40,864 bases of DNA from a virus (Duplodnaviria; Heunggongvirae; Uroviricota; Caudoviricetes), in the IMG/VR virus record IMGVR_UViG_2565956716_000008; one strand, written 5' to 3'. This document shows, piece by piece, positions 1,029 to 30,023 of the stretch. The position numbers were made by a program, and so were the translations under genes. The notes under the pieces are model-generated. The model worked only from the letters and a program-made list of their open reading frames with translations. It was not told the DNA's origin and made no database searches. Position 1 is the stretch's first letter; each line of letters opens with the position of its first letter.

Positions 1029-1202
1029 ATGGAAGATCAAAAAGCAACCAAGCCACAGGTTAAGTTCGACACAATGAAAGCATTCGCAGGTATGGGTGCT
1101 GCTGTTGAAGTTCTGATGAAGGCTGCTCCTAATGCGTTCACTCACGCTACTGTCTCTGGTAAAGAGCAGCAGGGTAAGCTTCGTCGTCGCAAAGCAGCAT
1201 GA
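1029..1202 (+). CDS. small hypothetical protein (57 aa), below ORF-track cutoff
   Basis: ATG at 1029 preceded by GGAG about 8 nt upstream; ends just before a strong terminator. Confidence 0.3.
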   Translation: MEDQKATKPQVKFDTMKAFAGMGAAVEVLMKAAPNAFTHATVSGKEQQGKLRRRKAA

Positions 1203-1221
1203 TCATAGCTGGTGCTTTTTG

Positions 1222-1248
1222 AAAACCCGCCTTTAGGCGGGTTTTTTC
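1222..1248. terminator. bidirectional rho-independent terminator
   Basis: aaaacccgcc-ttta-ggcgggtttttt hairpin flanked by A-run and T-run, between convergent genes. Confidence 0.6.
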
Positions 1249-1249
1249 T

Positions 1250-1531
1250 TTAGTGATGTTCTTTGCCCTTCTGTTTGCCTGTTCTGACCTGTTCCCACTC
1301 GATACGTCCTTCTTCTCGTCTTTTGTCTATGTATTCCGCAAGATCCTGAATATTGATGCAACGTTTTGCTTTTTGTGATGTGCCGATGCGATATGTTGGA
1401 ACGGGCAACTTACAAGCGTTTGCTTTTGCTTCTGCCGTGGCTGGACTCATGCCAAAGTACTTTTGGCTAACTGCTGAGAGTTCAATGTTAGGGGTATTGA
1501 ATTCAGCCATCAGTAAAAACAAGGTGTTCAT
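1250..1531 (-). CDS. PrtN/AlpA-like small DNA-binding protein (possible excisionase or activator)
   Basis: MNTLFLLMAEF...YFGMSP...LPVPTYRIG...QDLAEYID resembles PrtN family; GGAGAA RBS before internal ATG at 1531 (track ORF extends to 1558). Confidence 0.45.
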   Translation of the reverse strand: MNTLFLLMAEFNTPNIELSAVSQKYFGMSPATAEAKANACKLPVPTYRIGTSQKAKRCINIQDLAEYIDKRREEGRIEWEQVRTGKQKGKEHH

Positions 1532-1567
1532 AATTTTCTCCATCAAAACCGGCTGCACCCGGGAAAA

Positions 1568-2143
1568 TCATAATTCTGTGCTGGTGGCAGGAATTAATTT
1601 CTGCCAGATAGCGGAAACATATTTTGCCTGATGACGGGCATCAGCCAGGGCGTTGTGCCGTTCGCCATCGAAAGGCATGTCCATTTTGGGGTCGAATCCG
1701 ATGGAACGCCCAAGCGTAACGATCGTGCGTACATCGTGGTCATTCCAGTACGCCCACGGGCAGATTTGTCCTGCTCGCTCATAAGCTCCACGTAAAATTA
1801 CGTTGTCGAAGGTGGCCCCGTTACCCCAGACTTTTAAATATTTCGTATTGTCTGCGTGCCGGTTAATGAAATGGTTTAGTTCTGAGAGAGCATCGCTGAT
1901 CGACAAAGTATCATCAATACAGATTGCAGCTCGCGCTTCAGGGCTTTGTTTCAACCACCACAGGATGGTATCGCCGTCAGGTGTAGCTCCTTGCTTCATA
2001 GCACTGTCCAGGCTGACAACCGCATAGAATTCTTGTCCGATGTCTCCGGTTTCTGGAGTGAAGAACACCGCGCCAATGGAAACGATCGGTGCATCCTTAT
2101 TTTTCCCCATCGTCTCAAGGTCGATCATTAAGTTGTTCATCAC
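1568..2143 (-). CDS. DEDDh-type 3'-5' exonuclease
   Basis: IDLET motif, GNGATFDNVIL motif and C-terminal H...D motif (HNALADARH); start overlaps upstream stop. Confidence 0.6.
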   Translation of the reverse strand: MMNNLMIDLETMGKNKDAPIVSIGAVFFTPETGDIGQEFYAVVSLDSAMKQGATPDGDTILWWLKQSPEARAAICIDDTLSISDALSELNHFINRHADNTKYLKVWGNGATFDNVILRGAYERAGQICPWAYWNDHDVRTIVTLGRSIGFDPKMDMPFDGERHNALADARHQAKYVSAIWQKLIPATSTEL

Positions 2144-2892
2144 TTCACCTCCTGCGGCGGTTCCGGTAGCGGCATCCAGTGAGTTGCTTGCTCAATACCA
2201 TTACCCGGCTTAATCGTTGCATCTCCGCGCCGAAAGGTGCTTCCGGTATAGCGTGCGGAGCATATTAGCGGTTCAACCAGAGAGCTATCGAAATTCACCG
2301 AAATAAGCACGTTCTGGCCCTTTTCAGGCATTCGATCACTACAGCTTATCCAACTATCCGGAGTTCCCGGAGAGTTGCCATTTACATCGAAGTTTGGCTC
2401 TGCGTCCTGAACCAGGAGGATGTAACCATTCTTGGCCGTATCAAGTTCTAACGCCTCGGTGACGGTGCCGAAATAGCGATTACCTAAATCAGCATCACAA
2501 GTGCTAACATCAATGGAAACTTCCATGCCTTCGATTAATTCTGGCAAGTTGTAAGTTTGGTTTACAGGTTGGCCTCCCTGAAGCATGGCGGCGCGGTGAC
2601 ACCAGATAATCCAGCCAAGCGCCATATCCCATGCCATGTATTCTCTATCACCATTTTTTGCCCTGCGGCGATCTACAGATTCCCCGAAACGCTTCTCCAT
2701 AAATAATTCATAGGCTGCCCGTTCATCCGATACTGCTGCCAGCGATGCCAGTGCAATTTTAAATGCGGTAAGTATGTTGTTAACCTGACCTATTTCGAAT
2801 GCTATTTCACTACATACAAACGATTTATCGTCTATTATCGACTCAATTCCGGTAATCGTGTTCTGTAACCATTCTTTGGTAATAGTATTCAT
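2140..2892 (-). CDS. DUF551-domain phage protein
   Basis: C-terminal WISCSDRMPE...THWMPLPEPP signature; AAGGTGA RBS. Confidence 0.5.
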   Translation of the reverse strand: MNTITKEWLQNTITGIESIIDDKSFVCSEIAFEIGQVNNILTAFKIALASLAAVSDERAAYELFMEKRFGESVDRRRAKNGDREYMAWDMALGWIIWCHRAAMLQGGQPVNQTYNLPELIEGMEVSIDVSTCDADLGNRYFGTVTEALELDTAKNGYILLVQDAEPNFDVNGNSPGTPDSWISCSDRMPEKGQNVLISVNFDSSLVEPLICSARYTGSTFRRGDATIKPGNGIEQATHWMPLPEPPQEVK

Positions 2893-2894
2893 AA

Positions 2895-3086
2895 CTATTT
2901 CACCTTAATCTCAACATTTCGCAGCTTTAGCTCTACTGGCAGGTCTGACTTTCCGGTTAATGCTAATGCGAGATTTTCTGGAGTAATGAGAGCAGTTATT
3001 GTTTTCCCCCTCGCCAGACGAATAATCATTCGTATCTCGCGATCGTCACATGCTCCCGGTCGAACAATTGATATTTGTCCGATCAT
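2895..3086 (-). CDS. hypothetical small protein (63 aa)
   Basis: ATG at 3086 with AAGGAGA RBS; track ORF extends upstream to 3116. Confidence 0.3.
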   Translation of the reverse strand: MIGQISIVRPGACDDREIRMIIRLARGKTITALITPENLALALTGKSDLPVELKLRNVEIKVK

Positions 3087-3087
3087 C

Positions 3088-3669
3088 TCACTCTCCTTTG
3101 ATGCGAATGCCAGCAAGCCAGTTTCTTATGCCGATATATTCAGCGTTCCTGAAACCGCTTTTTACATATATAAATGGCAAGCGAAGATTGTGACCATTGG
3201 CTGCCAGGTAGTCTTTACAACCCTGTTCGGTGAAACAGCAGGTAACGAATTCATCAATATCTTTCACAGCAACGCGCCGCCATTTTTCTGGTGGTTCCCG
3301 AAAGTTTTCATGAAGTAGTTCGAGACGACGACTTTGGAGTTTATTGGCTTCATTGCCATCTTCATCAACCCAGACAATCCGGTCATAGTCATAATCAGCA
3401 TCAACAACAATTTCGCGCTTTTGATACACACAAAACATAGGGTCTGACGTTATTCGATTATCCTGTGTTCGAATATTTTCACCGATGATGCCAAACGAAT
3501 CTGGCGTAGGTTTTGTCTGTAACTCTTCGATACGTTCAGCCAGCGCCGCGCACTTGGCCTCAGCTTCAGCAAATTTACGCACCAAGTACTCAGCGTTTGT
3601 TTCGTTCACTTTCAGATCTCGCGGTACACATTTCCCGCGAAGAAACCCTTCCATTTCGAAAACATTCAT
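3088..3669 (-). CDS. hypothetical phage early protein
   Basis: 193-aa ORF; start ATG overlaps stop of upstream HD gene (ATGA). Confidence 0.35.
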   Translation of the reverse strand: MNVFEMEGFLRGKCVPRDLKVNETNAEYLVRKFAEAEAKCAALAERIEELQTKPTPDSFGIIGENIRTQDNRITSDPMFCVYQKREIVVDADYDYDRIVWVDEDGNEANKLQSRRLELLHENFREPPEKWRRVAVKDIDEFVTCCFTEQGCKDYLAANGHNLRLPFIYVKSGFRNAEYIGIRNWLAGIRIKGE

Positions 3670-5219: not shown

Positions 5220-5582
5220 TTAATGACCTGCTGCGCGGAGTTTTCCGTCAGGTTCACCGGCAAGAGTCAGTAATTGTCCCTGGTCTTCCTGCAGAATAGT
5301 CAGGCGACCACCGCGATTGACATACATCGGCGTTTCGGTGGTGTCTTCTTCGGAAATTTTCCCGCGGTTAGTCGGGCGAACATATGAGAGTTTGTGTTTG
5401 ATTTTCACACGGTTCTCATCAAATGGTTCGATTTCCAGGTTGAGTGAGACCTTACCTTTGGTTTTCGTGTTCATCACACCTGAAGCGACTTCACTGAGAA
5501 CTGCGCCGATTTTGGTTTCAAATACGCCGCCGTCCAGCTCCCCGATAAATGCCTGCACATCAGTACTGCGTTCGCTAGCCAT
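5220..5582 (-). CDS. hypothetical phage protein (YfdP-like by size and position)
   Basis: ATG at 5582 with AGGAG RBS 7 nt upstream; long 5' extension of track ORF crosses a structured non-coding region. Confidence 0.4.
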   Translation of the reverse strand: MASERSTDVQAFIGELDGGVFETKIGAVLSEVASGVMNTKTKGKVSLNLEIEPFDENRVKIKHKLSYVRPTNRGKISEEDTTETPMYVNRGGRLTILQEDQGQLLTLAGEPDGKLRAAGH

Positions 5583-5719
5583 TTTGCTGCTCCTCATCAT
5601 ATCGACCCTGCAAGGTCGGTTGGTTTCTCCACAAAACAGAGAAGAACACCTGCGGTGGCAGCCGCCCGGATGGATTGGGTTATGAGCCCGTCGTCCGGTG
5701 ATGCTCTTCTCTGTTTTGT

Positions 5720-5765
5720 AAAAAGAGCGGTACCAGCCGGAAGCAAGTGTACAAACTGGTACCGC
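5720..5765 (-). terminator. candidate intrinsic terminator in early-left operon leader
   Basis: gcggtaccag / ctggtaccgc 10-bp stem followed on minus strand by tcttttt. Confidence 0.35.
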
Positions 5766-6019
5766 GAGGACTACACACAGCATAAAGTTGTGGTGCCGGG
5801 TGCCTCCCGGTGCCTGGCGAAGGTTGCACACCAGGCGGGTGGGTATCCACAGAAGGTCGACTGTCAGCCTCAACCTTAACCCGCGTGCGCTGAGCCGCAT
5901 TCACCACAACGCTAAGGATTCTCTCTGGTTGAAAATACTTAGCTGTTATGTGCCTGTCTTTTCACCACTTCAGGCTCGGTGGTATCCTTTTAAGCCCGTA
6001 TACATAAAAGGAAAATCAA

Positions 6020-6265
6020 ATGACTTTTGATGAAAAAGAACTTGATAATGCAATTAATAAAATCATCGTAACGTCGCTCTTTTCCTGTCTCAGCGACACT
6101 CAGCAGAAACAGTTCTACGAATCGGCTTTCAACATGATCGAGCGTTGTTGTTTCTGCGATGCCGACGAGTTACCTGAAAAAATCAGGAAACAGTTGGCTG
6201 ATGCTCTTCGAGTGCGACTTTCTGACCAATTTTCTGAAATGTGCTCTCCGAATTTGGACAAATAG
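6020..6265 (+). CDS. hypothetical protein (81 aa) in AT-rich immunity-region insert
   Basis: AAGGA RBS 8 nt before ATG; overlaps 3' end of convergent ORF 6183..6458. Confidence 0.3.
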   Translation: MTFDEKELDNAINKIIVTSLFSCLSDTQQKQFYESAFNMIERCCFCDADELPEKIRKQLADALRVRLSDQFSEMCSPNLDK

Positions 6266-6458
6266 AAAAAGGCCATTTCCATTCAGGGTCTGATGGAAAT
6301 ACTTCAGCCTGTTCCAAAGCACGGCGTAAAGAGAATACAACTCCAGCCATAATCTGATGTTTCCCATTGGTCCAGCTATCGCCGCTCTGATCTACAGGAG
6401 CGGCTATGTCGTATGACCAAACGACTTCACCACTATTGTTTAAAATCTGGACTTTCAT
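6183..6458 (-). CDS. hypothetical protein (91 aa), first ORF downstream of PL
   Basis: GGAGG upstream of ATG; convergent 83-bp overlap with 6020..6265. Confidence 0.3.
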   Translation of the reverse strand: MKVQILNNSGEVVWSYDIAAPVDQSGDSWTNGKHQIMAGVVFSLRRALEQAEVFPSDPEWKWPFSICPNSESTFQKIGQKVALEEHQPTVS

Positions 6459-6577
6459 TTTGTTCTTTAACCTCCAGATACGGGCGTTTAATGGCCCCGC
6501 CGAACAGCTCTTTTCCGCAATAGCTGCAATGTCTTTCGCGCATCAGCCTGCGCATTCACCACAACTCTAAAAACAAA

Positions 6578-6628
6578 TGTAGGATATCCAACATGTGAGT
6601 GTCAAGAGTTTATGTTGGTTATCCTACA
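6578..6628. promoter_or_regulatory. OL-like operator pair with leftward promoter (PL)
   Basis: tgtaggatatccaaca (6578-6593) and tgttggttatcctaca (6613-6628); minus-strand TTGACA at 6600-6605 between them. Confidence 0.5.
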
Positions 6629-6643
6629 TAAAAAGATAGGCTC

Positions 6644-6670
6644 ATAAAAAAACCGGGGATACCCCGGTTT
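6644..6670 (-). terminator. rho-independent terminator after repressor gene
   Basis: ccggggtatccccgg hairpin followed by 7 T on minus strand. Confidence 0.6.
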
Positions 6671-6691
6671 TGCGATAGTGAGGAAGATGTG

Positions 6692-8594: not shown

Positions 8595-9536
8595 ATGAGC
8601 ACTAAATTAACCGGCTATGTATGGGATGGTTGCGCAGCGTCAGGCATGAAATTATCCAGCGTGGCAATTATGGCCCGCCTGGCTGATTTCAGTAATGACG
8701 AAGGTGTGTGCTGGCCATCAATTGAAACCATTGCCCGCCAGATTGGCGCGGGGATGAGTACCGTCAGAACGGCTATCGCACGGCTGGAAGCAGAAGGCTG
8801 GTTAACGCGTAAGGCGCGTCGCCAGGGTAACCGCAATGCGTCGAATGTTTATCAGCTTAACGTTGCGAAGCTTCAGGCAGCGGCATTTTCTCAACTGTCA
8901 GATTCTGACCCGTCAAAATCTGACGCATCAAAATCTGACCCGTCAAAATTTGATGCGTCGAAATCTGGCAAAAAAGCGGGTTTTCACCCGTCAGAATCTG
9001 GCGGGGATCCGTCAGTAAAATCAAAACATGATCCGTCAGATAAAAAACCTTCTCGTCCGGACGCTTCGCAACCGGACACGCAGACGGCTGAACAGGATTT
9101 TTTAACTCGCCATCCTGATGCGGTTGTATTCAGCCCTAAAAAACGCCAGTGGGGGACGCAGGATGATTTGACCTGCGCACAGTGGCTCTGGAAAAAAATC
9201 ATCGCCCTGTACGAGCAGGCTGCCGAATGTGACGGCGAGGTGGTTCGTCCCAAAGAACCGAACTGGACAGCCTGGGCAAACGAAATTCGCCTGATGTGTG
9301 TGCAGGATGGTCGTACTCACAAACAAATCTGCGAGATGTACAGCCGCGTCAGCCGCGATCCGTTCTGGTGCCGTAACGTGCTCAGCCCGTCGAAGCTGCG
9401 GGAAAAATGGGATGAGCTTTCCCTGCGCTTATCGCCGTCCGTCAGCACATACACAGAAAAACGTGAAGATCCGTACTTCAAATCCAGTTACGACAACGTG
9501 GACTACAGCCAGATCCCGGCAGGATTCAGGGGGTGA
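8595..9536 (+). CDS. replication initiator (HTH, O-like) with internal iterons
   Basis: N-terminal winged-helix region; central SDPSKSDASKSDPSKFDASKSG linker encoded by tandem DNA repeats. Confidence 0.6.
   Translation: MSTKLTGYVWDGCAASGMKLSSVAIMARLADFSNDEGVCWPSIETIARQIGAGMSTVRTAIARLEAEGWLTRKARRQGNRNASNVYQLNVAKLQAAAFSQLSDSDPSKSDASKSDPSKFDASKSGKKAGFHPSESGGDPSVKSKHDPSDKKPSRPDASQPDTQTAEQDFLTRHPDAVVFSPKKRQWGTQDDLTCAQWLWKKIIALYEQAAECDGEVVRPKEPNWTAWANEIRLMCVQDGRTHKQICEMYSRVSRDPFWCRNVLSPSKLREKWDELSLRLSPSVSTYTEKREDPYFKSSYDNVDYSQIPAGFRG
8895..9045 (+). repeat. iteron array (candidate replication origin) inside initiator gene
   Basis: 6-8 copies of about 15-bp unit CCGTCAAAATCTGA at 15-bp period followed by A-rich stretch. 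Confidence 0.55.
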
Positions 9537-9538
9537 TC

Positions 9539-10027
9539 ATGAGTCTTTTGAATGAAGTTCAGAAATTCATTGAAGCCCATCCGGGGTGTACTTCCGGAGA
9601 CATTGCGGATGCTTTTGCAGGTTACTCACGGCAGCGCGTTCTGCAGTCAGCAAGCAAGTTACGTCAGAGTGGGCGTGTGGCTCACCGTTGTGAAGGAGAT
9701 ACACGCAGACATTTCTCGCGCCTGACTGAGAGAGCGCAGGAGCCGGAACCACAACCAGTTCGTGAAACCAGACCTGTGCGCAAGTTCTATGTCGGCACTA
9801 ACGACCCCCGGGTGATTTTGTGCCTGACCCGCCAGGCTGAAGAACTGGAGTCGAGGGGCTTATACCGTCGTGCTGCAACGGTGTGGATGGCGGCATTCCG
9901 TGAAAGCCACTCCCAGCCAGAACGAAACAATTTTCTGGCGCGTCGTGAACGGTGTTTACGGAAAAGCAGTAAGCGGGCTGCATCAGGTGAAGAGTGGTAT
10001 CTCTCAGGGAATTACGTGGGGGCTTAA
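9539..10027 (+). CDS. PerC-like transcriptional regulator (tentative)
   Basis: AEELESRGLYRRAATVWMAAF motif resembles PerC family; AGGGGG RBS. Confidence 0.4.
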   Translation: MSLLNEVQKFIEAHPGCTSGDIADAFAGYSRQRVLQSASKLRQSGRVAHRCEGDTRRHFSRLTERAQEPEPQPVRETRPVRKFYVGTNDPRVILCLTRQAEELESRGLYRRAATVWMAAFRESHSQPERNNFLARRERCLRKSSKRAASGEEWYLSGNYVGA

Positions 10028-10680
10028 TGAGTAATAAATATTGCCAGGCGCTGGCGGAACTGCGGAACAAACCAGCCCATGAACTGAAGGAAGTGGGCGA
10101 TCAGTGGCGCACGCCGGACAACATTTTCTGGGGAATTAACACCCTGTTTGGCCCGTTTGTTCTGGATCTGTTCACTGACGGTGATAACGCCAAATGTGCT
10201 GCGTATTACACGGCGGAAGACAACGCGCTGGCGCATGACTGGTCAGAACGCCTTGCGGAGCTTAAAGGTGCTGCCTTTGGTAATCCCCCATACAGCCGCG
10301 CCAGTCAGCATGAGGGGCAATACATCACCGGCATGCGTTACATCATGAAGCATGCCAGTGCCATGCGTGATAAAGGCGGGCGCTATGTTTTCCTGATCAA
10401 AGCTGCCACCAGCGAAGTGTGGTGGCCGGAAGATGCAGATCATATTGCTTTTATTCGCGGGCGTATTGGTTTTGAACTGCCTGCCTGGTTTATCCCGAAG
10501 GATGAGAAGCAGGTGCCGACAGGCGCTTTCTTCGCTGGTGCTATTGCTGTTTTCGACAAGACCTGGAAGGGACCGGCAATCAGCTACATCGGGCGCGATG
10601 AACTTGAGGCATGTGGTGAGGCCTTTCTGGCGCAGGTTCGCCAGCAGGCAGAAAAACTGGTCAGGGAGATGGCGGCATGA
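10027..10680 (+). CDS. phage Dam-like DNA N6-adenine methyltransferase
   Basis: FGNPPYS catalytic motif; start ATG overlaps upstream stop (TAATG); track ORF 5' extension rejected. Confidence 0.65.
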   Translation: MSNKYCQALAELRNKPAHELKEVGDQWRTPDNIFWGINTLFGPFVLDLFTDGDNAKCAAYYTAEDNALAHDWSERLAELKGAAFGNPPYSRASQHEGQYITGMRYIMKHASAMRDKGGRYVFLIKAATSEVWWPEDADHIAFIRGRIGFELPAWFIPKDEKQVPTGAFFAGAIAVFDKTWKGPAISYIGRDELEACGEAFLAQVRQQAEKLVREMAA

Positions 10681-11003
10681 CGACGTTAACTCAATGCCAG
10701 CAGCAGGTGCTGGATATGCTGATTTCTTATCAGAAAGAACGTGGCTTCCCGCCAACCAATCAGGAGGTGGCAACCATGCTGGGATACCGTTCAGTGAATG
10801 CAGCGGTGGAGCATCTTCGCGCACTGGAGAAAAAAGGCGTCATCACGATAAAGCGTGGCGTGGCCCGGGGCATCACGCTTCATACCGCGGTGAAGGACGA
10901 CGACAGCGAGGCGGTCGGGATTATCCGCGCACTGCTTGCCGGTGAGGCAAACGCCAGGCTGCGTGCAGCCCACTGGTTACATGAGAGGGGCCTGAAAGTA
11001 TGA
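10677..11003 (+). CDS. LexA-like DNA-binding-domain protein (no peptidase domain)
   Basis: N-terminal LexA-type winged helix pattern (LTQCQQQVLDMLISYQKERGFPPTNQEVATMLGYRS). Confidence 0.45.
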   Translation: MTTLTQCQQQVLDMLISYQKERGFPPTNQEVATMLGYRSVNAAVEHLRALEKKGVITIKRGVARGITLHTAVKDDDSEAVGIIRALLAGEANARLRAAHWLHERGLKV

Positions 11004-11389
11004 AGCTAATACTGCCTTTTCCGCCCAGCGTGAACACGTACTGGCGACACCCCAACAAAGGGGCGCTTGCAGGTAAGAGCCTGATAAGCGCGGCGGGGCG
11101 AAAATTCCAGAGCGCAGCGTGTGCAGCCATCATTGAGCAGTTACGTCGTTTGCCGAAACCAACGTCGGCACCAGCTTCAGTGGAGATCGTGTTGTTTCCT
11201 CCGGATAACCGGCTTCGCGATCTGGACAACTATAACAAGGCGCTGTTTGACGCCCTGACCCACGCGGGTGTGTGGGTGGACGACAGCCAGGTGAAAAGAA
11301 TGCTGGTGGAGTGGGGGCCGGTTATCCCGGAAGGGAAGGTCGAAATCACTATCAGTAAGTACGAGAAAACGGCGGGTGCAGCCGCCTGA
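11000..11389 (+). CDS. rusA: RusA Holliday-junction resolvase
   Basis: RusA signature including DLDNYNKALFDALTHAGVWVDDSQV; 129 aa. Confidence 0.8.
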   Translation: MKLILPFPPSVNTYWRHPNKGALAGKSLISAAGRKFQSAACAAIIEQLRRLPKPTSAPASVEIVLFPPDNRLRDLDNYNKALFDALTHAGVWVDDSQVKRMLVEWGPVIPEGKVEITISKYEKTAGAAA

Positions 11390-11408
11390 TTAAGAGGAGA
11401 AACGAAGT

Positions 11409-12218
11409 ATGAATAATCTGATGGTTATTGATGGTATTGAAGTTCGTCGTGATGCTTATGGGCGTTACAGCCTGAACGATCTGCATCGCGCAGCAGTAGC
11501 ATCTGGTGCAAATGCCAGAACCAAGGAGCCAGGAAAGTTTCTTTCCAGCCAACAAACTGTTGAGCTTGTTCATGAATTAACCAACACCCAGAATTTGGGT
11601 GTTGACCCGGTGAGTGTGATTCATGGGGGAAATGAACGGGGAACGTATGTCTGTAAGGAACTGGTGTATGCCTATGCAATGTGGATCAGCCCGTCATTCC
11701 ATCTGAAGGTGATCCGTACTTTCGATATGGTAACCAGCGCACCGGAAAAATTATCCGGACAGGCTGCTGACAAGATGCAGGCTGGCGTGATTCTGCTGGA
11801 CTTTATGCGCCGGGAGTTAAATCTGTCTAACTCATCTGTGCTTGGGGCCTGTCAGAAACTCCAGGAGGCTGTTGGCTTACCGAATCTGGCACCGCGCTAT
11901 GCCATTGATGCACCTGCTGACGCGCCTGATGGCTCAAGCCGCCCCACGCTGTCGCTGAGTGCACTGCTGAAGCAGTATGGTATCCGCCTGACGGCTAATC
12001 AGGCATATCACCAGATGGTGAAGCTGGGGATCGTCGAGCAGCGCGAACGATACAGCCGTACCGGGATTAACAACATCAAAAAATTCTGGTCGCTGACGGC
12101 GAAAGGCTGCATGTTCGGCAAGAACATCACCAGTCCCGCAAATCCGCGTGAGACGCAGCCGCATTTCTTCGAATCCCGATTCCCTGAGCTGTTAAAGCTG
12201 CTCGATACCGTTCATTGA
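11409..12218 (+). CDS. KilA-N domain protein (putative antirepressor)
   Basis: N-terminal KilA-N pattern (GTYVCKELVYAYAMWISPSFHLKV). Confidence 0.6.
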   Translation: MNNLMVIDGIEVRRDAYGRYSLNDLHRAAVASGANARTKEPGKFLSSQQTVELVHELTNTQNLGVDPVSVIHGGNERGTYVCKELVYAYAMWISPSFHLKVIRTFDMVTSAPEKLSGQAADKMQAGVILLDFMRRELNLSNSSVLGACQKLQEAVGLPNLAPRYAIDAPADAPDGSSRPTLSLSALLKQYGIRLTANQAYHQMVKLGIVEQRERYSRTGINNIKKFWSLTAKGCMFGKNITSPANPRETQPHFFESRFPELLKLLDTVH

Positions 12219-12219
12219 G

Positions 12220-13215
12220 GTGACCGTGAGAGCACTACTGACCCCTGAAATAGCCCCGCGTATGGGGATTGTATTGTTCAGACCAGGTTCAGAGCTGATG
12301 CCCCTGTTTATGCAGGGGCGTGTCCTGCTGGAGCCTGAGCCGGAACGTTATTCATCTTTCGCCAGTGGTGCCGTTCCGGCGGCATCACAACCGCTGGCGG
12401 ATGATCCTGCCGTTAGGGCCGTGTTCCGCAATGAGGCAGTGATCCGTCGTGCTGGTGGCGTGGAATGTCTTGAAAGCTGGTTACTTCGTGAAAAAGGCTG
12501 CCAGTGGCCTCATTCCGACTGGCACAGCGAGAACATGACCACAATGCGACACGCGCCGGGCGCGATCCGTCTGTGCTGGCACTGCGATAACCAGCTGCGC
12601 GATCAGTTCACGGAACGGCTGGAATCAATGGCAACGGATAACTGTGCCCGCTGGGTGTTGTCTGTAGTCCGTCGGGATCTCGGTTTTGATGATAACCATG
12701 CCGTGACAATGCCGGAACTGTGCTGGTGGCTGATTCGTAATGACCTGGCGGATGCCTTACCGGAAAGTGCAGCCCGTAAGGCACTGAGATTACCGAAGCC
12801 TGTTGTGCCGTCTGTCACCCGGGAAAGTGACCTTGTGCCTTCGGTTCCTGCCACCAGCATCATCCAGGATAAGGCGAAAAAGGTGCTGGCGCTGAAAGTG
12901 GATCCGGAGTCGCCGGAGTCTTTTATGTTACGCCCAAAACGCCGCCGCTGGGTTAATGAAAAGTACACGCGCTGGGTTAAGACACAGCCGTGTGCATGTT
13001 GTGGAAAGCCTGCTGATGATCCCCACCACCTGATAGGCCACGGTCAGGGTGGAATGGGTACAAAAGCGCATGACCTCTTTGTGTTGCCTTTGTGCAGAAA
13101 GCATCACGACGAGCTGCATGCGGATACCGTGGCATTTGAAGAGAAGTATGGCTCTCAGCTGGAGCTGATATTTCGTTTTATCGATCGTGCGCTGGCAATT
13201 GGCGTATTGGCGTAA
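12220..13215 (+). CDS. DUF968-domain phage protein
   Basis: C-terminal CACCGKPADDPHHLIGHGQGGMGTKAHD...PLCRKHHDELH motif; GTG start. Confidence 0.5.
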   Translation: MTVRALLTPEIAPRMGIVLFRPGSELMPLFMQGRVLLEPEPERYSSFASGAVPAASQPLADDPAVRAVFRNEAVIRRAGGVECLESWLLREKGCQWPHSDWHSENMTTMRHAPGAIRLCWHCDNQLRDQFTERLESMATDNCARWVLSVVRRDLGFDDNHAVTMPELCWWLIRNDLADALPESAARKALRLPKPVVPSVTRESDLVPSVPATSIIQDKAKKVLALKVDPESPESFMLRPKRRRWVNEKYTRWVKTQPCACCGKPADDPHHLIGHGQGGMGTKAHDLFVLPLCRKHHDELHADTVAFEEKYGSQLELIFRFIDRALAIGVLA

Positions 13216-13228
13216 GTGGAGAACGAGC

Positions 13229-13981
13229 ATGAACCTTGAAGCCTTACCAAAATATTACTCCCCAAAATCTCCAAAATTGAGCGATGACGCACCGGCGACA
13301 GGCTCAGGTGGTTTAACGATTACGGATGTGATGGCTGCGCAGGGGATGGTGCAGTCGAAAGCACCGCTTGGGTTTGCCTTATTCCTGGCAAAAGTTGGTG
13401 TTCAGGATCCTCAATTTGCGATTGAAGGTCTGCTCAATTACGCGATGGCACTGGATAAGCCGACATTGAACAAATTGAGTGAAGAAACCCGGTTACAGAT
13501 CATCCCTTACCTTGTGAATTTTGCCTTTGCTGATTATTCCAGGTCTGCGGCAAGTAAGGCTCGCTGTGAGCATTGTGCTGGTACTGGATTTCATAATGTA
13601 TTGCGCGAAGTGGTGAAACACTCCAGAAGCGGGGAATCTGTTATCAAGGAAGAGTGGGTGAAGGAACTATGTCAGCATTGTCATGGTAAGGGAGAAGTCA
13701 GCACAGCGTGCAGAGGGTGTAAGGGTAAAGGTATTGTCCTGGATGAAAAAAGGACCCGGCTTCATGGCACGCCTGTTTATAAGATTTGTGGGCGTTGCAA
13801 TGGAAACCGGTTTAGCCGTTTACCAACCACACTGGCGCGGCATCATGTCCAGAAGCTGGTACCAGACCTGACGGATTATCAGTGGTACAAAGGATATGCA
13901 GATGTCATTGATAAACTGGTTACAAAGTGCTGGCAGGAAGAAGCATATGCAGAGATACAATTGAGAAAGGTGACAAGATAA
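13229..13981 (+). CDS. Q-like late-gene regulator with DnaJ-type CxxCxGxG zinc-finger repeats (tentative antiterminator)
   Basis: position between early genes and lysis cassette, followed by short terminated leader; four CxxCxGxG repeats; GGAG RBS. Confidence 0.45.
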   Translation: MNLEALPKYYSPKSPKLSDDAPATGSGGLTITDVMAAQGMVQSKAPLGFALFLAKVGVQDPQFAIEGLLNYAMALDKPTLNKLSEETRLQIIPYLVNFAFADYSRSAASKARCEHCAGTGFHNVLREVVKHSRSGESVIKEEWVKELCQHCHGKGEVSTACRGCKGKGIVLDEKRTRLHGTPVYKICGRCNGNRFSRLPTTLARHHVQKLVPDLTDYQWYKGYADVIDKLVTKCWQEEAYAEIQLRKVTR

Positions 13982-14087
13982 ATGGTTTTCGCCGAAGATG
14001 ACGACATGATGCTTGCATTTTTCAAAAAATATGGATAAGATTTTCCCAACGATGGGCTTTGTATGTCTACCGTTGATAAGATTTAGG

Positions 14088-14112
14088 AACCCGCCACTGA
14101 GCGGGTTTTTTG
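14088..14112 (+). terminator. rho-independent terminator (tR'-like) downstream of Q-like gene
   Basis: aacccgc-cactga-gcgggtt followed by T-run. Confidence 0.6.
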
Positions 14113-14233
14113 TACCTGTAAACTTGGTGCAGTACAGTAAACACGCTGGTGGTCGTGAATACTGACTTTTTATCTTGCTGGATTTTTAGACAAGGGTTAT
14201 TGGTATGTCATGTTAACCAGAAGGGAAAAAGAC

Positions 14234-14437
14234 ATGCTAAAACAGCAAGATATGACAGAAACCGCCGCCGCAGTCCTTCATTTCTTACCTGCTGACAAGT
14301 GGGTAACGCCACGCATGATGACGAGAACTACCGGAGTAAGCGAAGCCCGGTGCCAGTTAATACTGACTCAGTTAGTTCTGGCGGGTCTGGCGAAGGATAA
14401 CGGCGGGTACGGGAATAAATTCAGACGCTGCCAGTAA
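14234..14437 (+). CDS. hypothetical small protein
   Basis: AAGGGA RBS before ATG at 14234 (track ORF starts 14210). Confidence 0.3.
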   Translation: MLKQQDMTETAAAVLHFLPADKWVTPRMMTRTTGVSEARCQLILTQLVLAGLAKDNGGYGNKFRRCQ

Positions 14438-14587
14438 TGGCGGTTTCCTGCTGTGAAAATGGGCGGCTGGTGGGTGTTGGTAGCACCTGCCAGCCATTCG
14501 CTCATGCTTACTGGTCACAAGCGAACCACGGCCCACTGCTTTAGCGCAAAAGCAGAGTGAGCCTACCAGAGTTACGCTTACTGATCC

Positions 14588-15640
14588 ATGAAAAATACTG
14601 TAAAAATAAACAGTGTTGATTTAATCAACGCTGATTGCCTGCATTTTATTCAGTCCCTGCCTGATGATTCCATTGACCTGATTGTTACCGATCCGCCTTA
14701 CTTCAAGGTGAAACCTAACGGTTGGGACAATCAGTGGAAAGGGGACGAAGATTACCTTAAGTGGCTGGACCACTGTCTGGCCCAGTTCTGGCGGGTGTTG
14801 AAACCTGCCGGAAGCCTTTACCTGTTCTGTGGGCATCGCCTGGCATCTGATATTGAGATCATGATGCGTGAACGTTTCAACGTGCTTAACCATATCATCT
14901 GGGCGAAGCCGTCCGGACGTTGGAATGGGTGTAATAAAGAAAGTCTGCGCGCATATTTTCCTGCCACAGAGCGCGTTCTGTTTGCTGAACATTACCAGGG
15001 GCCATATCGCGGCAAAAGTGACGGCTATGCGGCAAAAGAAAGGGAACTCAAACAGCACATAATGGCACCGCTGATATCGTATTTCAGGGATGCTCGTGCC
15101 GAACTGGGTATAACGGCAAAACAAATTGCCGAAGCCACAGGTAAGAAAAATATGGTTTCCCACTGGTTTGGTGCCAGTCAGTGGCAGTTGCCGAATGAGG
15201 CTGACTATCGGAAGTTACAGGCACTGTTTTCCCGTATAGCGGCAGAGAAGTTTCAGGAACAACAACTGGAACAACCACACCACCAGCTGGTGGCATCTTA
15301 TGATTCACTGAATCGCAAATATTCTGAATTGCTGGATGAGTTTAAATCTCTCCGGCGCTATTTCTCCGTATCAGTCTCCGTGCCTTATACCGATGTCTGG
15401 ACGCATAAGCCCGTTCAGTTCTACCCGGGTAAACATCCGTGCGAGAAACCGGCGGATATGCTCCGGCAAATAATCAATGCCAGTAGTCGACCTGGTGATC
15501 TGGTTGCTGATTTCTTTATGGGATCCGGTTCCACAATAAAAGCAGCAATGGCGCTGGGGCGTCGGGCGTTAGGTGTTGAACTTGAGTCAGAGCGGTTTAA
15601 TCAGACGGTGAAAGAGGTAAGTGAACTGGTGGGGAAATAA
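14588..15640 (+). CDS. DNA methyltransferase, DPPY-motif N6/N4 class
   Basis: VTDPPY motif near N-terminus and FxGSGST AdoMet-binding motif near C-terminus. Confidence 0.7.
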   Translation: MKNTVKINSVDLINADCLHFIQSLPDDSIDLIVTDPPYFKVKPNGWDNQWKGDEDYLKWLDHCLAQFWRVLKPAGSLYLFCGHRLASDIEIMMRERFNVLNHIIWAKPSGRWNGCNKESLRAYFPATERVLFAEHYQGPYRGKSDGYAAKERELKQHIMAPLISYFRDARAELGITAKQIAEATGKKNMVSHWFGASQWQLPNEADYRKLQALFSRIAAEKFQEQQLEQPHHQLVASYDSLNRKYSELLDEFKSLRRYFSVSVSVPYTDVWTHKPVQFYPGKHPCEKPADMLRQIINASSRPGDLVADFFMGSGSTIKAAMALGRRALGVELESERFNQTVKEVSELVGK

Positions 15641-15644
15641 TTCT

Positions 15645-15670
15645 GGTGGCCACGTTGCGTGGCCTTTTTA
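15645..15670 (+). terminator. candidate rho-independent terminator
   Basis: ggccacg-ttg-cgtggcc hairpin followed by ttttta. Confidence 0.5.
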
Positions 15671-15716
15671 TTTCCAACACAGCACCCGCAAATATCGCGA
15701 GGTGAGAGATGACGAA

Positions 15717-16052
15717 ATGCCTCATAACCCAAATACCTGGCCGGACTGGCTGGAGTTGTTTCAGAGCTGGTGGCGTGGAGACACACCGCTGGGTGCAGTG
15801 ATTATGTCGATCGTTATGGCTGGTTTGCGCATCGCCTATTTTGGCGGTGGTGGTGGCTGGAAGCGAAAAACGCTCGAGATTTTGCTATGTGGCGCTCTGA
15901 CGCTGACCTTTGCATCCGCTCTTGAATATGTCGGATGGCCTAAATCGCTTTCTGTTGCCATTGGTGGTGGCGTGGGGCTGATCGGTGTCGATGCTATTCG
16001 TGGGGCTGCAATGCGAGTAATCGGTAACAAATTTGGTAGCTCGAAGGAGTAA
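15717..16052 (+). CDS. holin (lambda S-like, three predicted TM segments)
   Basis: 111 aa, three hydrophobic segments, charged C-terminus, directly upstream of endolysin. Confidence 0.55.
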   Translation: MPHNPNTWPDWLELFQSWWRGDTPLGAVIMSIVMAGLRIAYFGGGGGWKRKTLEILLCGALTLTFASALEYVGWPKSLSVAIGGGVGLIGVDAIRGAAMRVIGNKFGSSKE

Positions 16053-16055
16053 TTT

Positions 16056-16532
16056 ATGCAGGCACTAAATTCCCAGCGTAAAGCTTTCCTGGATATGGTG
16101 GCATGGTCAGAAGGAACGGATAACGGGCGACAACCGACACGTAACCACGGTTATGATGTTATTGTTGGTGGCGAACTGTTCACTGATTACTCCGATCACC
16201 CTCGCAAACTTGTCACGCTAAACCCCAAACTCAAATCAACAGCTGCCGGACGTTACCAGCTTCTTTCACGCTGGTGGGATGCTTACCGTAAACAGCTTGG
16301 CCTGAAAGATTTTTCTCCAGAAAGCCAGGACGCTGTAGCTCTGCAGCAGATTAAAGAGCGTGGTGCTTTACCGATGATTGACCGCGGCAGTATTCGTCAG
16401 GCAATCGACCGTTGCAGCAATATCTGGGCGTCGTTACCTGGTGCAGGTTACGGTCAGTATGAACATAAAATCGGTGACCTGATTGCCCGATTTAAAAAAG
16501 CTGGTGGGGTAGTAAATGAAGCTGAGATATAA
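16056..16532 (+). CDS. endolysin, lambda R-type transglycosylase
   Basis: near-identical by eye to lambda R sequence character (NQRKAFLDM..WSEGTDNGRQ..HGYDVIVGG). Confidence 0.85.
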   Translation: MQALNSQRKAFLDMVAWSEGTDNGRQPTRNHGYDVIVGGELFTDYSDHPRKLVTLNPKLKSTAAGRYQLLSRWWDAYRKQLGLKDFSPESQDAVALQQIKERGALPMIDRGSIRQAIDRCSNIWASLPGAGYGQYEHKIGDLIARFKKAGGVVNEAEI

Positions 16533-16908
16533 GCTGGTTATTGTTGCCTTCGTTGTTAGCGTCATTGGTTCCTTCATCTGGTCTACCGGGCATTACTACA
16601 GCAAATATCAGCACGAAAAGGAGCGTGCTGATGAGGCTGTACGAAATGCTGAATCAGCAACTGCCATTACCCGTAACGTTCTGCAATCACTGCAAATCAT
16701 CAATACAGTTATAGAGGCTAACCAGCATGCAAAACAGCAGATCGCACTGGAGTCACAGAGAACCCAGGAAGATATCAAAGTGGCTGTTGCGGATGATGAT
16801 TGTGCTTCACGTCATGTGCCTGCTGCCGCTGCTGACCGGTTGCGGAAGTACGCGAACAGTTTACGTACCGATTCCGGCGGTACCGTTGCCAGCAAGCCTG
16901 ACTACTGA
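16516..16908 (+). CDS. Rz-like i-spanin
   Basis: N-terminal TM helix then coiled-coil-like region; follows endolysin. Confidence 0.5.
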   Translation: MKLRYKLVIVAFVVSVIGSFIWSTGHYYSKYQHEKERADEAVRNAESATAITRNVLQSLQIINTVIEANQHAKQQIALESQRTQEDIKVAVADDDCASRHVPAAAADRLRKYANSLRTDSGGTVASKPDY

Positions 16909-17065
16909 AACTCCCCAGCCAGTCATTCCCGAGCCGCTGACCTATGGGGCCAGTCTGGATCTGAATGTGAGCCTGCTTTCGGCGTTGGGACAATGCAATA
17001 TTGACAAAGCGGGGATTCGAAATATCGAGATGCGCCGTAACGCTTTGCTGGCAGCAGGCAAATAG
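16793..17065 (+). CDS. Rz1-like o-spanin lipoprotein (overlapped, +1 frame)
   Basis: signal peptide with LLTGC lipobox, proline-rich mature region; starts inside Rz in +1 frame. Confidence 0.45.
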   Translation: MMIVLHVMCLLPLLTGCGSTRTVYVPIPAVPLPASLTTETPQPVIPEPLTYGASLDLNVSLLSALGQCNIDKAGIRNIEMRRNALLAAGK

Positions 17066-17091: not shown

Positions 17092-17442
17092 ATGCCCCCC
17101 CGAACTCCAAAAGCCTGCCGCGTTCGCGGCTGCCGTAATACCACGACAGACCCGTCAGGCTACTGCGAAAGCCACAAAAGCGAAGGCTGGAAGCAATACA
17201 AGTCAGGACAATCCCGTCATCAGCGCGGTTATGGTTCTAAGTGGGATGTTATCCGCGCGCGTGTCCTGAAGCGTGACAAAGGTTTATGTCAGTTATGTCT
17301 GCGTGCTGGTGTGGTACGTGAGGCGAAGACCGTTGACCACATCATCCCTAAAGCGCGTGGCGGCACTGATGCCGACAGTAATCTACAGAGCCTGTGTTGG
17401 CCGTGTCATAAGGCGAAGACGGCCCGTGAATGGCTGAAGTAA
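17092..17442 (+). CDS. HNH endonuclease (terminase-associated)
   Basis: CxxC...HxxxxH...CxxCH pattern; immediately upstream of terminase small subunit. Confidence 0.75.
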   Translation: MPPRTPKACRVRGCRNTTTDPSGYCESHKSEGWKQYKSGQSRHQRGYGSKWDVIRARVLKRDKGLCQLCLRAGVVREAKTVDHIIPKARGGTDADSNLQSLCWPCHKAKTAREWLK

Positions 17443-27535: not shown

Positions 27536-29354
27536 GCTTAAGGCGTTGATCACCGGTGTCGACAGGCTTTCTCCCGCGCTGTCGAAAATGCAAAAGAAAA
27601 TCCGGGGATTTAAACGCCAGGCGGAAGAAGCGTCACAGGGTGGGCTGGCGCTTGGTGGCGGACTGGCAGCGGGTCTGACGCTTTCCCTGAAATCTTATGC
27701 CGATCAGGAAAACGCCGCCACCGGGCTGAAAGTCGCCATGATGGATGCGAACGGCGAGGTCGGAAAGAGCTTTCAGGACATCAATAAACTGGCTATTGGC
27801 CTGGGTAACCAGCTACCAGGTACAACGGCTGATTTCCAGAACATGATGCAGATGCTGGTGCGTCAGGGGATCCCGGCAGAAAATATTCTTGGCGGTGTGG
27901 GTAAAGCGACAGCTTATCTTGCGGTACAACTGAAAAAAACACCGGAAGCGGCTGCTGAGTTTGCTGCAAAGATGCAGGATGCTACCGGAACGGCGTCAGA
28001 AGACATGATGGGGCTGTTCGACACTATCCAGAAGGCGTTTTATCTGGGTGTTGACGATACCAACATGTTGTCCTTCTTCACTAAAACCAGCTCTGTTCTG
28101 AAGATGGTGAACAAGGACGGTCTTCAGGCTGCACAGAGCCTTGCCCCCATCAGCGTCATGATGGATCAGATGGGGATGAACGGGGAGTCGGCAGGTAACG
28201 CCCTGCGAAAAGTTATCCAGTCCGGATTAAGCGTTAAGAAAATCAGGGACGTCAATAAAATCATGGCCCGCCAGAAACTCGGGGTACAGCTCGATTTTAC
28301 TGACGGCAAAGGAAGTTTTGGCGGTCTTGATAACATGTTCAGGCAACTGGCAAAGCTGCGAAAACTGACCGACGTTAAGCGAACAGGTGTACTTAAGGCA
28401 ATATTTGGTGATGATGCCGAAACCCTTCAGGTGGTCAATGCACTAATCGATAAAGGAAAGGATGGCTACGATCAGATCCAGCAGAAGATGAATAAACAGG
28501 CCAGCCTGAATAAACGTGTTCAGGCCCAGCTTGGTACGCTGTCCAACCTGTGGGAGGCAATGACGGGGACCGCAACTAACGGCCTTGCGGCTATTGGCGG
28601 CGCATTTTCTGGTGACGCCAAAAATATCACGCAATGGCTGGGGGAGTTAGGGGAAAAATTCACGAAGTTTGCGGATGAAAATCCCCGGGTTATTCGCGGC
28701 GTCGTCGGGCTTGCTGCCGGTCTTGCGATTCTGAAACTGGGATTGATGGGCGTTGGCGGTGCCATCAGTATTGTCAGCAGGATTATGTCGATGACGCCGA
28801 TTGGCATGATTGCGACGGCGATTGCTCTGGCTGCGGGATTAATTATCACTAACTGGGATGTTGTCGGACCTTATTTCAAGAAGCTCTGGGAAACCATTGG
28901 TCCTTATTTTGAGGCAGGTTGGGAACTTCTGAAGAAGGTTTTTGCCTGGTCGCCGCTGGGGATGGTGATCAATAACTGGGGACCGGTTGTTAAGTGGTTT
29001 CAGGATATGTGGGACAAGCTGAAGCCAATTATTGAGTGGTTTACCGACAGTTCCGGTGACACGGTCGATGCCATTAACTCTGCGCAGTGGGGCGCGGGTG
29101 CTTATGATGCTTATGGGACGGGAATACCGGCGCGGGGATACACACCTTATCCGGCGGTGGATCCGGCTCAGTCAAACAACGCCTCCGATGCCACAGGCTC
29201 GAATCCCTTCATGATTAACAAAGCTTCTGTGCCAAAAGTTGATGGTGAGATCAAGGTCTCTTTTGTGAATTCGCCTCCGGGTATGCGGGTTATGGAAACG
29301 CGATCCAGCGGTTTTGATGTCAGCCATGATGTTGGCTATACGCGGTTCAGGTAG
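27522..29354 (+). CDS. tail tape measure protein
   Basis: 610 aa, helical/Gly-rich segments, position. Confidence 0.75.
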   Translation: MAEFELKALITGVDRLSPALSKMQKKIRGFKRQAEEASQGGLALGGGLAAGLTLSLKSYADQENAATGLKVAMMDANGEVGKSFQDINKLAIGLGNQLPGTTADFQNMMQMLVRQGIPAENILGGVGKATAYLAVQLKKTPEAAAEFAAKMQDATGTASEDMMGLFDTIQKAFYLGVDDTNMLSFFTKTSSVLKMVNKDGLQAAQSLAPISVMMDQMGMNGESAGNALRKVIQSGLSVKKIRDVNKIMARQKLGVQLDFTDGKGSFGGLDNMFRQLAKLRKLTDVKRTGVLKAIFGDDAETLQVVNALIDKGKDGYDQIQQKMNKQASLNKRVQAQLGTLSNLWEAMTGTATNGLAAIGGAFSGDAKNITQWLGELGEKFTKFADENPRVIRGVVGLAAGLAILKLGLMGVGGAISIVSRIMSMTPIGMIATAIALAAGLIITNWDVVGPYFKKLWETIGPYFEAGWELLKKVFAWSPLGMVINNWGPVVKWFQDMWDKLKPIIEWFTDSSGDTVDAINSAQWGAGAYDAYGTGIPARGYTPYPAVDPAQSNNASDATGSNPFMINKASVPKVDGEIKVSFVNSPPGMRVMETRSSGFDVSHDVGYTRFR

Positions 29355-29453
29355 TGTACAAAATGATTAATGTGTTTTTGTCTGGCATAATTTGGGTTTT
29401 CAGCTTTAAGTAGTTAATATAATCATTCCTTACAAATGATTGAAGGGATGATT

Positions 29454-29948: not shown

Positions 29949-29967
29949 TAATTAAAAATATTAGGTT

Positions 29968-30023
29968 CCCGCCACATCTTCTGCGATGTAAATAACTGAC
30001 AAAGCAGATTTGGCGGGTTTTTT
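29968..30023 (+). terminator. rho-independent terminator after moron
   Basis: cccgccacatct ... agatttggcggg stem followed by tttttt. Confidence 0.5.

Follow-up and report, generated by a model that had tools for sequence, protein, structure and literature searches.

The 40,864-nucleotide (nt) viral sequence IMGVR_UViG_2565956716_000008 from IMG/VR, referred to here as the window, is an SfV-like lambdoid prophage of Escherichia coli/Shigella inserted beside dusA, and it encodes two solitary N6-adenine methyltransferases. One is a 217-residue phage Dam-type enzyme (10027-10680, + strand), and the other is a 350-residue β-class enzyme assigned by its sequence to the M.EcoGII (non-specific) family (14588-15640, + strand). 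We consider it probable that the two differ in both task and timing, with the Dam acting early and the M.EcoGII-type enzyme serving as a late, Q-dependent anti-restriction methylase. The late gene moves between phages as a fixed module, apparently undescribed before, that comprises a 67-residue winged-helix open reading frame (ORF), a ~150-nt leader, the methylase and a terminator. What was computed here covers the identities and order of the genes, their intact motifs, the hairpins, and the conservation and covariation of the leader. An initial annotation of the window had named two unrelated orphan methyltransferases, two terminators bracketing the second, and a small ORF; every one of these lies at the coordinates it gave, and the enzymes do belong to different families with different motif orders (PF05869 with NPPY; PF01555 with DPPY and FMGSG). 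What that annotation missed is the conserved leader, which separates the methylase from the small ORF.

Two methyltransferases of different families

The late gene, the counterpart of orf48 in Shigella flexneri serotype-converting phage SfV (U82619 / NC_003444), encodes a protein that matches Pfam family PF01555 over residues 29-341 (E 1.3e-42). Its motifs follow the β-class order, with DPPY (motif IV) at residues 35-38, a central target-recognition domain, and FMGSG (motif I, FxGxG) at 310-314, and both conserved halves align to solved β-class enzymes including M.RsrI, M.MboIIA and CcrM. Aligned end to end with M.EcoGII, 283 of 349 positions are identical (81%, with 91% positives and two gaps), a value that is approximate and probably a lower bound because the reference was machine-read from the PDF supplement of the SUPREM paper and contains visible reading errors. 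M.EcoGII and M.EcoGI, which derive from prophages of E. coli O104:H4 C227-11 (Murray et al. 2018, PMC5778455), share the β-class order, a length of 349-350 residues, a prophage location and a solitary state with the window's enzyme, which differs from M.EcoGII at ~19% of residues. The M.EcoGII literature examined gives only the prophage location, and neither the arrangement of small ORF, leader and methylase nor its place in the late operon is described there.

Non-specific activity, lysogen silence and toxicity are taken here from papers on these homologues. M.EcoGII methylates deoxyadenosines to extents of up to 99% (in vitro) and 86% (in vivo), and it blocks numerous restriction enzymes. 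Its native lysogen does not express it, growth slows when it is expressed, and its authors proposed that it helps the phage to counter host restriction (PMC5778455). A methylome study of O111 Shiga toxin-producing E. coli lists both prophage enzymes of O104:H4, M.EcoGI and M.EcoGII, as 'nonspecific', and an M.EcoGI homologue in the ST131 strain EC958 was judged inactive by reverse transcription PCR under the tested conditions only (PMC4659465). The DPPY motif recognized in the initial annotation is thus present, and its undefined label of 'N6/N4 DPPY-class' can be replaced, on sequence similarity, by an M.EcoGII-family N6-adenine enzyme whose activity is most likely context-free adenine methylation. 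Two points weigh against this assignment, namely the imperfect reference sequence noted above and the fact that activity is known via homologues, the prophage itself being known here by sequence alone.

The early enzyme corresponds to SfV dam. It matches PF05869 at E 9.8e-46 (156 bits against a cutoff of 28.1, positions 3-167 of the 169 in the hidden Markov model) and the NCBIfam equivalog TIGR01712 at 255.6 bits (cutoff 97.05), and PADLOC model PDLC03263 matches it over 217 of 217 positions. The motifs NPPY (residues 86-89), DQWRTP (25-30) and LD (at 46) all align with their counterparts in M.EcoVT2Dam. In both methyltransferases of the window the catalytic motifs are intact on alignment rather than disrupted. 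M.EcoVT2Dam (VT2-Sakai orf32) and small phage Dams of the T1/HP1 type are likewise solitary PF05869 proteins with NPPY, and M.EcoVT2Dam also lies in the nin/early-right region of a lambdoid phage; it differs in its length of 175 residues and shares only 31% identity over 144 aligned residues with the window's Dam. Identical or near-identical copies of the latter occur in Stx2a, Stx2c and cdtI phages, and a PDB sequence search with it returned no relative. Its ATG overlaps the stop codon of an upstream PerC-like ORF as ATGA, and it is translationally coupled to that gene inside the early-right (nin-like) operon.

Specificity for GATC is plausible for this Dam. M.EcoVT2 is listed as a GATC enzyme (PMC6602927), and GATC is a family-level guess because even this closest characterized relative compared is so distant. 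That distance counts against the guess, as do the 146 GATC sites in the prophage against 196 expected from trinucleotide counts, which amount to neither strong enrichment nor avoidance; the count itself says little in either direction. Literature searches on PF05869 and TIGR01712 returned nothing on the specificity of this Dam branch.

Neither methylase has a nuclease partner, as the initial annotation had held. No restriction endonuclease was detected by Pfam or PADLOC among the non-structural ORFs of the prophage, nor in the PGAP annotation of a prophage 97-99% identical to it, and neither methylase is adjoined by the cognate endonuclease that marks a Type II restriction-modification system. 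The neighbors are the PerC-like ORF, a LexA-like ORF, RusA, Q, the small ORF and the holin, and PADLOC/defense matches are confined to the methylases themselves. Two HNH proteins are encoded, one of the DUF968/YdfU nin-region type (12220-13215) and one beside the terminase genes (17092-17442). We rejected the DUF968/HNHc_6 protein as a hidden partner: it adjoins neither methylase, has no PADLOC match, and is an ordinary nin-region gene beside RusA and Q in an E. coli Shiga toxin (Stx) prophage and a Klebsiella prophage (loci L005 and L008).

Late-operon position and timing

The late methylase lies between an antiterminator gene and the lysis cassette. Q (13229-13981, + strand; PF03589, E 1.3e-53) is an activator of late transcription of the phage-82/Qin type; its phrog_127 match starts at residue 15 of a GTG-started ORF, and the gene is 753 nt long in both the PGAP and SfV annotations. 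It is followed by an intrinsic terminator equivalent to tR' (14088-14112, + strand), in which an AACCCGC/GCGGGTT hairpin precedes a T-run. This element, annotated in SfV and overlooked by our automated terminator scan, folds at -13.5 kcal/mol (z -2.4), and equivalent hairpins with T-runs precede the module in Klebsiella loci L006 and L008. A second intrinsic terminator (15648-15670, + strand), also annotated in SfV, closes the module upstream of the holin gene; its stem at 15648-15664 has seven base pairs, six of them GC, is followed by TTTTTATTT and folds at -12.5 kcal/mol. Both terminators, which the initial annotation had placed at 14088-14112 and 15645-15670, are hairpins with T-runs. The lambda-family holin gene that follows (15717-16052, + strand; PF05106, E 5.9e-27; 336 nt in PGAP and SfV) is the first of the lysis cassette.

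A further hairpin (14427-14443, + strand; -10.0 kcal/mol) encloses the stop codon of the small ORF, which we call orf47 after its SfV counterpart. Its 6-8-bp stem is kept by differing sequences in most loci, with changes on both sides in four of five pairs, and in 11 of 48 aligned sequences it is followed by a strong, terminator-like T-run, which is weak in the window. These two properties suggest that the hairpin is a second transcriptional lock. The candidate late promoter PR' (14013-14041, + strand), read from the sequence as TTGCAT, a 17-nt spacer and TAAGAT, occupies the place between Q and the first terminator that lambdoid late-operon design predicts; against it, the match to consensus is weak and falls under the promoter-scan threshold.

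The position after Q and the first terminator and before the holin recurs in other loci, and we strongly infer from this that the late methylase is expressed only through Q antitermination and hence only in lytic growth. Such Q-dependent late expression fits the published silence and toxicity of the homologues, and the place in the late operon behind two hairpins, as read from the sequence, implies silence in the lysogen. The different timing of the two enzymes, which the initial annotation had raised, is a sound conclusion from gene order, one gene being in the early-right and the other in the Q-dependent late operon.

The module keeps its place across phages. Klebsiella prophages (L006-L008) have the order Q, small ORF, methylase, holin, and an E. 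coli Stx prophage (L005) has Q, small ORF, methylase, stx. An Erwinia locus (L009) has Q, methylase and holin with an opposite-strand AAA_13 gene inserted. The Q genes upstream belong to two unrelated Pfam families, PF03589 and PF06530, and because the placement holds behind both, the module behaves as a portable cassette at the start of the late operon. Across many genera, the protein encoded by the late gene is conserved at 70-93% identity.

Pairing with an early methylase also recurs. Klebsiella prophages with the same late module carry an MT-A70 (PF05063) or D12 (PF02086) methylase in the nin region (2441-3085 in L006/L007; 698-1507 in L008). Of the 46 IMG/VR contigs that extend 6 kb or more beyond the module on its upstream side, at least 15 encode an early methylase of the PF05869 or D12 family; the search used only four query proteins, and the count is therefore a minimum. 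Two methylases per phage, one early and one late of the EcoGII type, are thus a common design. The pairing seen in the window is correct and beyond chance, and it was already known from the SfV genome (2002) and the M.EcoGII work (2018). It is neither rare nor novel: such a pairing recurs in 15 of the 46 viral contigs, the arrangement is published for SfV, and at least 330 of 5426 complete E. coli genomes contain ≥80% of the 7.5-kb stretch at 9500-17000.

That stretch is 99.2% identical to Escherichia phage vB_EcoM-720R4 by nucleotide comparison and 97.8% identical to SfV over 96% of its length. SfV shares the order PerC-like ORF, dam, LexA-like ORF, RusA, KilA-N, DUF968, Q and terminator, followed by orf47, orf48, terminator, S, R and Rz/Rz1, and its 2002 record annotates dam, orf47, orf48 and both putative rho-independent terminators at the corresponding positions. 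It differs in that orf47 and orf48 were labeled 'unknown' in the original record, and the prophage copy in the window adjoins dusA.

Two of these loci merit separate mention. In L005 the EcoGII-type module (5441-6676) lies immediately 5' of the genes for Shiga toxin A and B, and methylase and toxin there share a Q-dependent late transcript by virtue of this adjacency, an arrangement found in some Stx phages; the methylase goes unmentioned in a paper on the late promoters of such phages. In Erwinia endophytica L009 the place of orf47, between Q and the methylase, is taken by an oppositely oriented gene for a 798-residue AAA_13 ATPase (1182-3578), a possible defense gene in the same hotspot.

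We infer the GATC specificity of the early enzyme, the Q dependence of the late one and the role of orf47 and the leader, and with these the following sequence of events can be proposed. The Dam would be made in early lytic growth, possibly at a low level in lysogens as well, and in methylating GATC on replicating phage DNA it would most likely outpace the limiting host Dam, which leaves P22 and lambda virion DNA undermethylated. The late enzyme would remain unexpressed in the lysogen, to which its activity would be toxic, and would be transcribed only once Q renders RNA polymerase resistant to termination at tR' and at the hairpin ending orf47. Late in infection it would hypermethylate progeny DNA before packaging, and such DNA would be broadly protected in the next host against adenine-methylation-sensitive Type I, II and III restriction.

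The main competing account, which we consider unlikely, is that one or both enzymes act chiefly as epigenetic regulators of host or prophage genes in the lysogen, affecting for example spontaneous induction or virulence. It draws on an MT-A70 enzyme of Stx phage PA8 that raises spontaneous induction (PMC10810198), on a distant PF05869 relative in the S. aureus mosaic phi11 prophage (the subject of PMC12435837), and on a putative promoter before dam in the SfV authors' annotation. For the late enzyme, however, this account has to accommodate two upstream hairpin/terminator elements, a start codon without a Shine-Dalgarno sequence, and homologues that are silent and toxic; for the Dam, it must contend with a gene lying within the early operon and translationally coupled, before which our promoter scan found no sigma-70-like site. 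Of the two functions offered in the initial annotation, then, anti-restriction coincides with the published proposal for the late family (PMC5778455), whereas lysogen epigenetics is improbable for the late enzyme.

The identification of the late gene is of practical use, as the DPPY methylase between Q and the lysis genes in many E. coli, Shigella, Klebsiella and Salmonella prophages can now be annotated as a non-specific adenine methylase, including in Stx phages where it lies just upstream of stx. M.EcoGII, toxic on expression and silent in lysogens, is a widely used reagent for chromatin footprinting and RNA methylation, and no description of the phage's own control of it was found in the M.EcoGII literature examined. 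The first terminator, winged-helix ORF, stop-codon hairpin, structured leader and second terminator of the module are all candidates for that control.

The conserved leader and orf47

Between orf47 and the methylase lies a ~150-nt non-coding leader (14438-14587, + strand), predicted to be a structured RNA from its blastn conservation and covariation. Across 51 loci representing more than 20 genera of Enterobacterales its nucleotide identity is 75-92%, and alignments of the upstream region show it to be more conserved than orf47. The window's own leader folds with a z-score of -3.0. We built a structure by hand and tested it on 48 aligned sequences against shuffled and slid controls. It consists of the orf47-stop hairpin, a GGGC/GCCC helix enclosing GGCTGG.../...CCAGCC and TTCGCT/AGCGAA, and then CTGCTTT/AAAGCAG and GTGAGC/GCTTAC. 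Overall, 84.3% of cells are paired. The covariation score is 0.111, a value that 0 of 500 shuffles (mean 0.070) attained and that exceeds the 0.079 maximum of the slid controls. Changes at pair 82-106 are fully compensatory (CG 23, AU 12, UA 8, UG 4, unpaired 0), and GGGC/GCCC is preserved by one G-to-A / C-to-T double change.

Against this structure, the RNAalifold consensus differs from it in part and has a small covariation term (-0.42), and most leader columns are invariant and thus uninformative on pairing; for both reasons the exact fold is provisional. A long-range AAGCG/CGCTT helix drawn by RNAalifold was dropped for TTCGCT/AGCGAA, because on inspection of the alignment the variable base tracks its upstream partner at every locus examined and the downstream one only sometimes. 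The upstream pairing has no unpaired cell in the 48-sequence test.

Other explanations for the conservation were considered. An E-value search of 13900-15800 against Rfam 15 gave no match in the leader, and the only matches in that interval, STnc130 (E 0.34) and fstAT (E 0.35), are at chance level and lie outside it. A conserved peptide was rejected, as the window's 33-codon ORF is cut to seven codons (MGGWWVL) by a 1-nt indel in most loci, and alignment inspection revealed no reading frame conserved across single-base indels in the leader. A promoter within the leader was likewise set aside, with only weak hexamers visible and none called by the scan.

The leader is closely tied to the methylase. 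In IMG/VR, 112 of 121 copies of a 20-nt leader core have a DPPY ORF 128-130 nt downstream. Of the nine exceptions, three are at the ends of contigs and two (L130, L125) have a frameshifted or truncated methylase gene; the remaining four (L083, L121, L147, L166) retain only the leader's initial ~55 nt, up to and including the GGCTGG...CAG hairpin, and continue into unrelated AT-rich DNA, which suggests a recurrent recombination breakpoint inside the leader. An nhmmer search found no leader upstream of distant methylase homologues (33-41% identity) outside Enterobacterales. The methylase ATG has no Shine-Dalgarno sequence and is directly preceded by a conserved TGATC.

This places a GATC directly 5' of the late methylase start (TGATC[C/T]ATG, 14579-14590), at >90% conservation in alignment columns 166-174. 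The TGATC could pair with a GGTCA in the leader or could provide a Dam-methylation link at the DNA level as in Mu mom.

The ORF upstream of the leader, orf47 (14234-14437, + strand), is the first gene of the module and encodes a stand-alone 67-residue protein. An AAGGGA Shine-Dalgarno sequence lies 8 nt upstream. The initial annotation rightly recorded a small ORF here and called it unknown; it is in fact a conserved gene, matching phrog_331 (E 3e-26) and having 89 database homologues, some of them named TrmB-family or DprA-like winged helix by their source. Pfam matches at the sequence level are marginal (MarR_2, E 0.045; TrmB, E 0.12). The AlphaFold2 model (mean confidence, pLDDT, 86.9) has helices at residues 7-17, 26-33 and 37-49 and strands at 53-55 and 63-65, in the order H-H-H-β-β, and by this model orf47 is a minimal winged helix with H1-H2-H3 and a β-hairpin wing. 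The top Foldseek matches are all winged-helix domains, among them a Zalpha domain at a template-modeling score of 0.83 and a root-mean-square deviation of 1.1, the winged helices of TrmB, IclR and RNA-binding SelB, and Zalpha bound to Z-RNA.

Zalpha domains contact Z-form nucleic acid through a conserved Asn and Tyr on helix 3 and a Trp on the wing, as in ADAR1 Zalpha. By inspection, helix 3 of orf47 (EARCQLILTQLVL) has neither Asn nor Tyr and its wing (KDNGGYGNKFRRCQ) has no Trp, and identity to the Zalpha structure 1qbj is 16%. We therefore rejected orf47 as a Zalpha domain; the contact residues being absent, the two share the fold only.

A precedent for the whole arrangement exists in phage Mu. 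There, com-mom provides a toxic DNA-modifying enzyme that is silent in the lysogen and expressed late, behind a small ORF and a structured mRNA leader; Com activates mom translation by binding that leader, and Dam methylation also gates mom transcription. The window's module resembles com-mom in having a modifier, predicted to be toxic, silent in the lysogen and late, after a small ORF and a putatively structured leader. It differs in that Mom is not an S-adenosylmethionine (SAM) methyltransferase and Com is a zinc-finger protein, whereas orf47 is a winged helix, and the two systems have no sequence relationship. The likeness is further limited in that Com binds its leader, while binding of orf47 to the methylase leader is conjectural. 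Mom and M.EcoGII are grouped together as silent and toxic in a review (PMC12707154).

A second precedent comes from Stx phage PA8, in which the prophage adenine methyltransferase M.EcoPA8orf6770P is co-transcribed with an upstream small winged-helix protein, PNB-2 (PMC10810198). That enzyme differs from the late methylase in being of the MT-A70 type (DPPW), in lying near the other prophage end, and in being active in lysogens on 16S rRNA; its family and position led us to reject it as a match for either gene of the window. By analogy with Com and PNB-2, orf47 may have a regulatory or targeting role.

The PA8 system also motivates the reading that the physiological substrate of the late enzyme is RNA (rRNA or mRNA), with orf47 as a targeting subunit like PNB-2. 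M.EcoGII does act on single-stranded RNA and DNA:RNA hybrids (PMC5778455), PNB-2 directs its MT-A70 partner to 16S rRNA (PMC10810198), and orf47 is a winged helix that adjoins the methylase and resembles RNA-binding SelB and Z-RNA-bound Zalpha in Foldseek. We nevertheless regard this reading as quite unlikely, since M.EcoGII alone modifies ~90% of DNA adenines against ~30% of RNA adenines, the PA8 enzyme has a different family and position, orf47 is much less conserved (39-68% amino-acid identity) than either the methylase or the leader, and a complex of orf47 with the methylase is conjecture.

Under the favored reading of a late anti-restriction enzyme, orf47 and the structured leader, with no Shine-Dalgarno sequence, would most likely determine how much methylase is translated, or when, a step that we offer only as a hypothesis. 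We tentatively hold it possible that leader and orf47 constitute an undescribed cis-regulatory RNA/protein switch that gates translation of the toxic methylase in the manner of Mu com-mom; in a bolder variant, the leader may sense a metabolite such as SAM. Such a switch, if real, would account both for the absence of M.EcoGII-type activity from lysogens and for its dosage late in infection. The cassette of orf47, leader and methylase is the only item here that seems undescribed, and it is a candidate for the control of an enzyme that is both toxic and in wide use.

Remaining alternatives and the wider prophage

The late enzyme might instead be a sequence-specific orphan methyltransferase in the style of YhdJ (ATGCAT), with a target unlike that of M.EcoGII. 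PF01555 also holds many specific enzymes, and with 19% of residues differing from M.EcoGII the sequence cannot itself reveal specificity. We consider this very unlikely, as identity to M.EcoGII is even across residues 121-260, including the four-helix target-recognition region (~160-237), and a YhdJ-type NCBIfam model scores the protein at 110 bits, under its cutoff of 292. Moreover, the protein falls between M.EcoGII and reportedly active reconstructed ancestors, with identities of 88% to Anc291 and 86% to Anc289, and it is 70% identical to SUPREM. All of these enzymes were reported to be active on DNA and RNA, Anc291 and Anc289 2.4-fold more so on DNA than M.EcoGII, and nanopore RNA sequencing found M.EcoGII and its variants to be largely non-sequence-specific (PMC11551740).

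That both genes are decaying passengers of a defective prophage, without current function, is barely credible: many E. coli prophages are defective and the late gene is broken in L130 and L125, but both ORFs here are full length with intact motifs, the late gene is conserved across genera, and the prophage retains complete replication, lysis, head, tail and integration modules and, over 89% of its first 25 kb, has 98.7% identity to the deposited phage genome vB_EcoM-720R4.

The rest of the window agrees with a complete lambdoid/Mu-tailed prophage, as judged from its ORFs throughout, from Pfam scans and from an annotated E. coli prophage used for comparison. It encodes a CI/Cro switch, a replication gene, a nin-like region, Q, a lysis cassette, an HNH gene beside a P27-family small terminase subunit, an HK97-type head, a contractile tail, a tail-fiber invertase and an integrase (38265-39362) that adjoins dusA (39451-40488). 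The match to SfV is partial outside the methylase region, with 43% of positions 1-25000 covered. A tRNA scan was empty, and we therefore ruled out a late region of the tRNA-bearing 933W/VT2 type.

Several other features were observed. Within a replication-initiator-like gene (8595-9536), 4.3 tandem copies of the 15-bp unit TCTGACCCGTCAAAA at 8904-8967 encode SDPSK/SDASK and are probably origin iterons as in lambda O. At the left edge (1-989), an antitoxin-like ORF with a SocA/Panacea domain (1-573) overlaps a 139-residue ORF with no family match (570-989); the two may form a toxin-antitoxin pair, and the closest annotated prophage does not have this part. A tail-fiber host-range switch occupies 35040-37811, where a serine invertase (37248-37811) adjoins opposed tail-fiber C-terminus/assembly genes at 35765-36367 (+) and at 36339-36791 and 36803-37171 (both -). 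Finally, GC content falls steeply, to 38.7%, in 29001-30000 around a 170-residue ORF (29436-29948) that sits between the tape-measure and DNA-circularization genes; it is 'hypothetical' in a related prophage and could be a moron.

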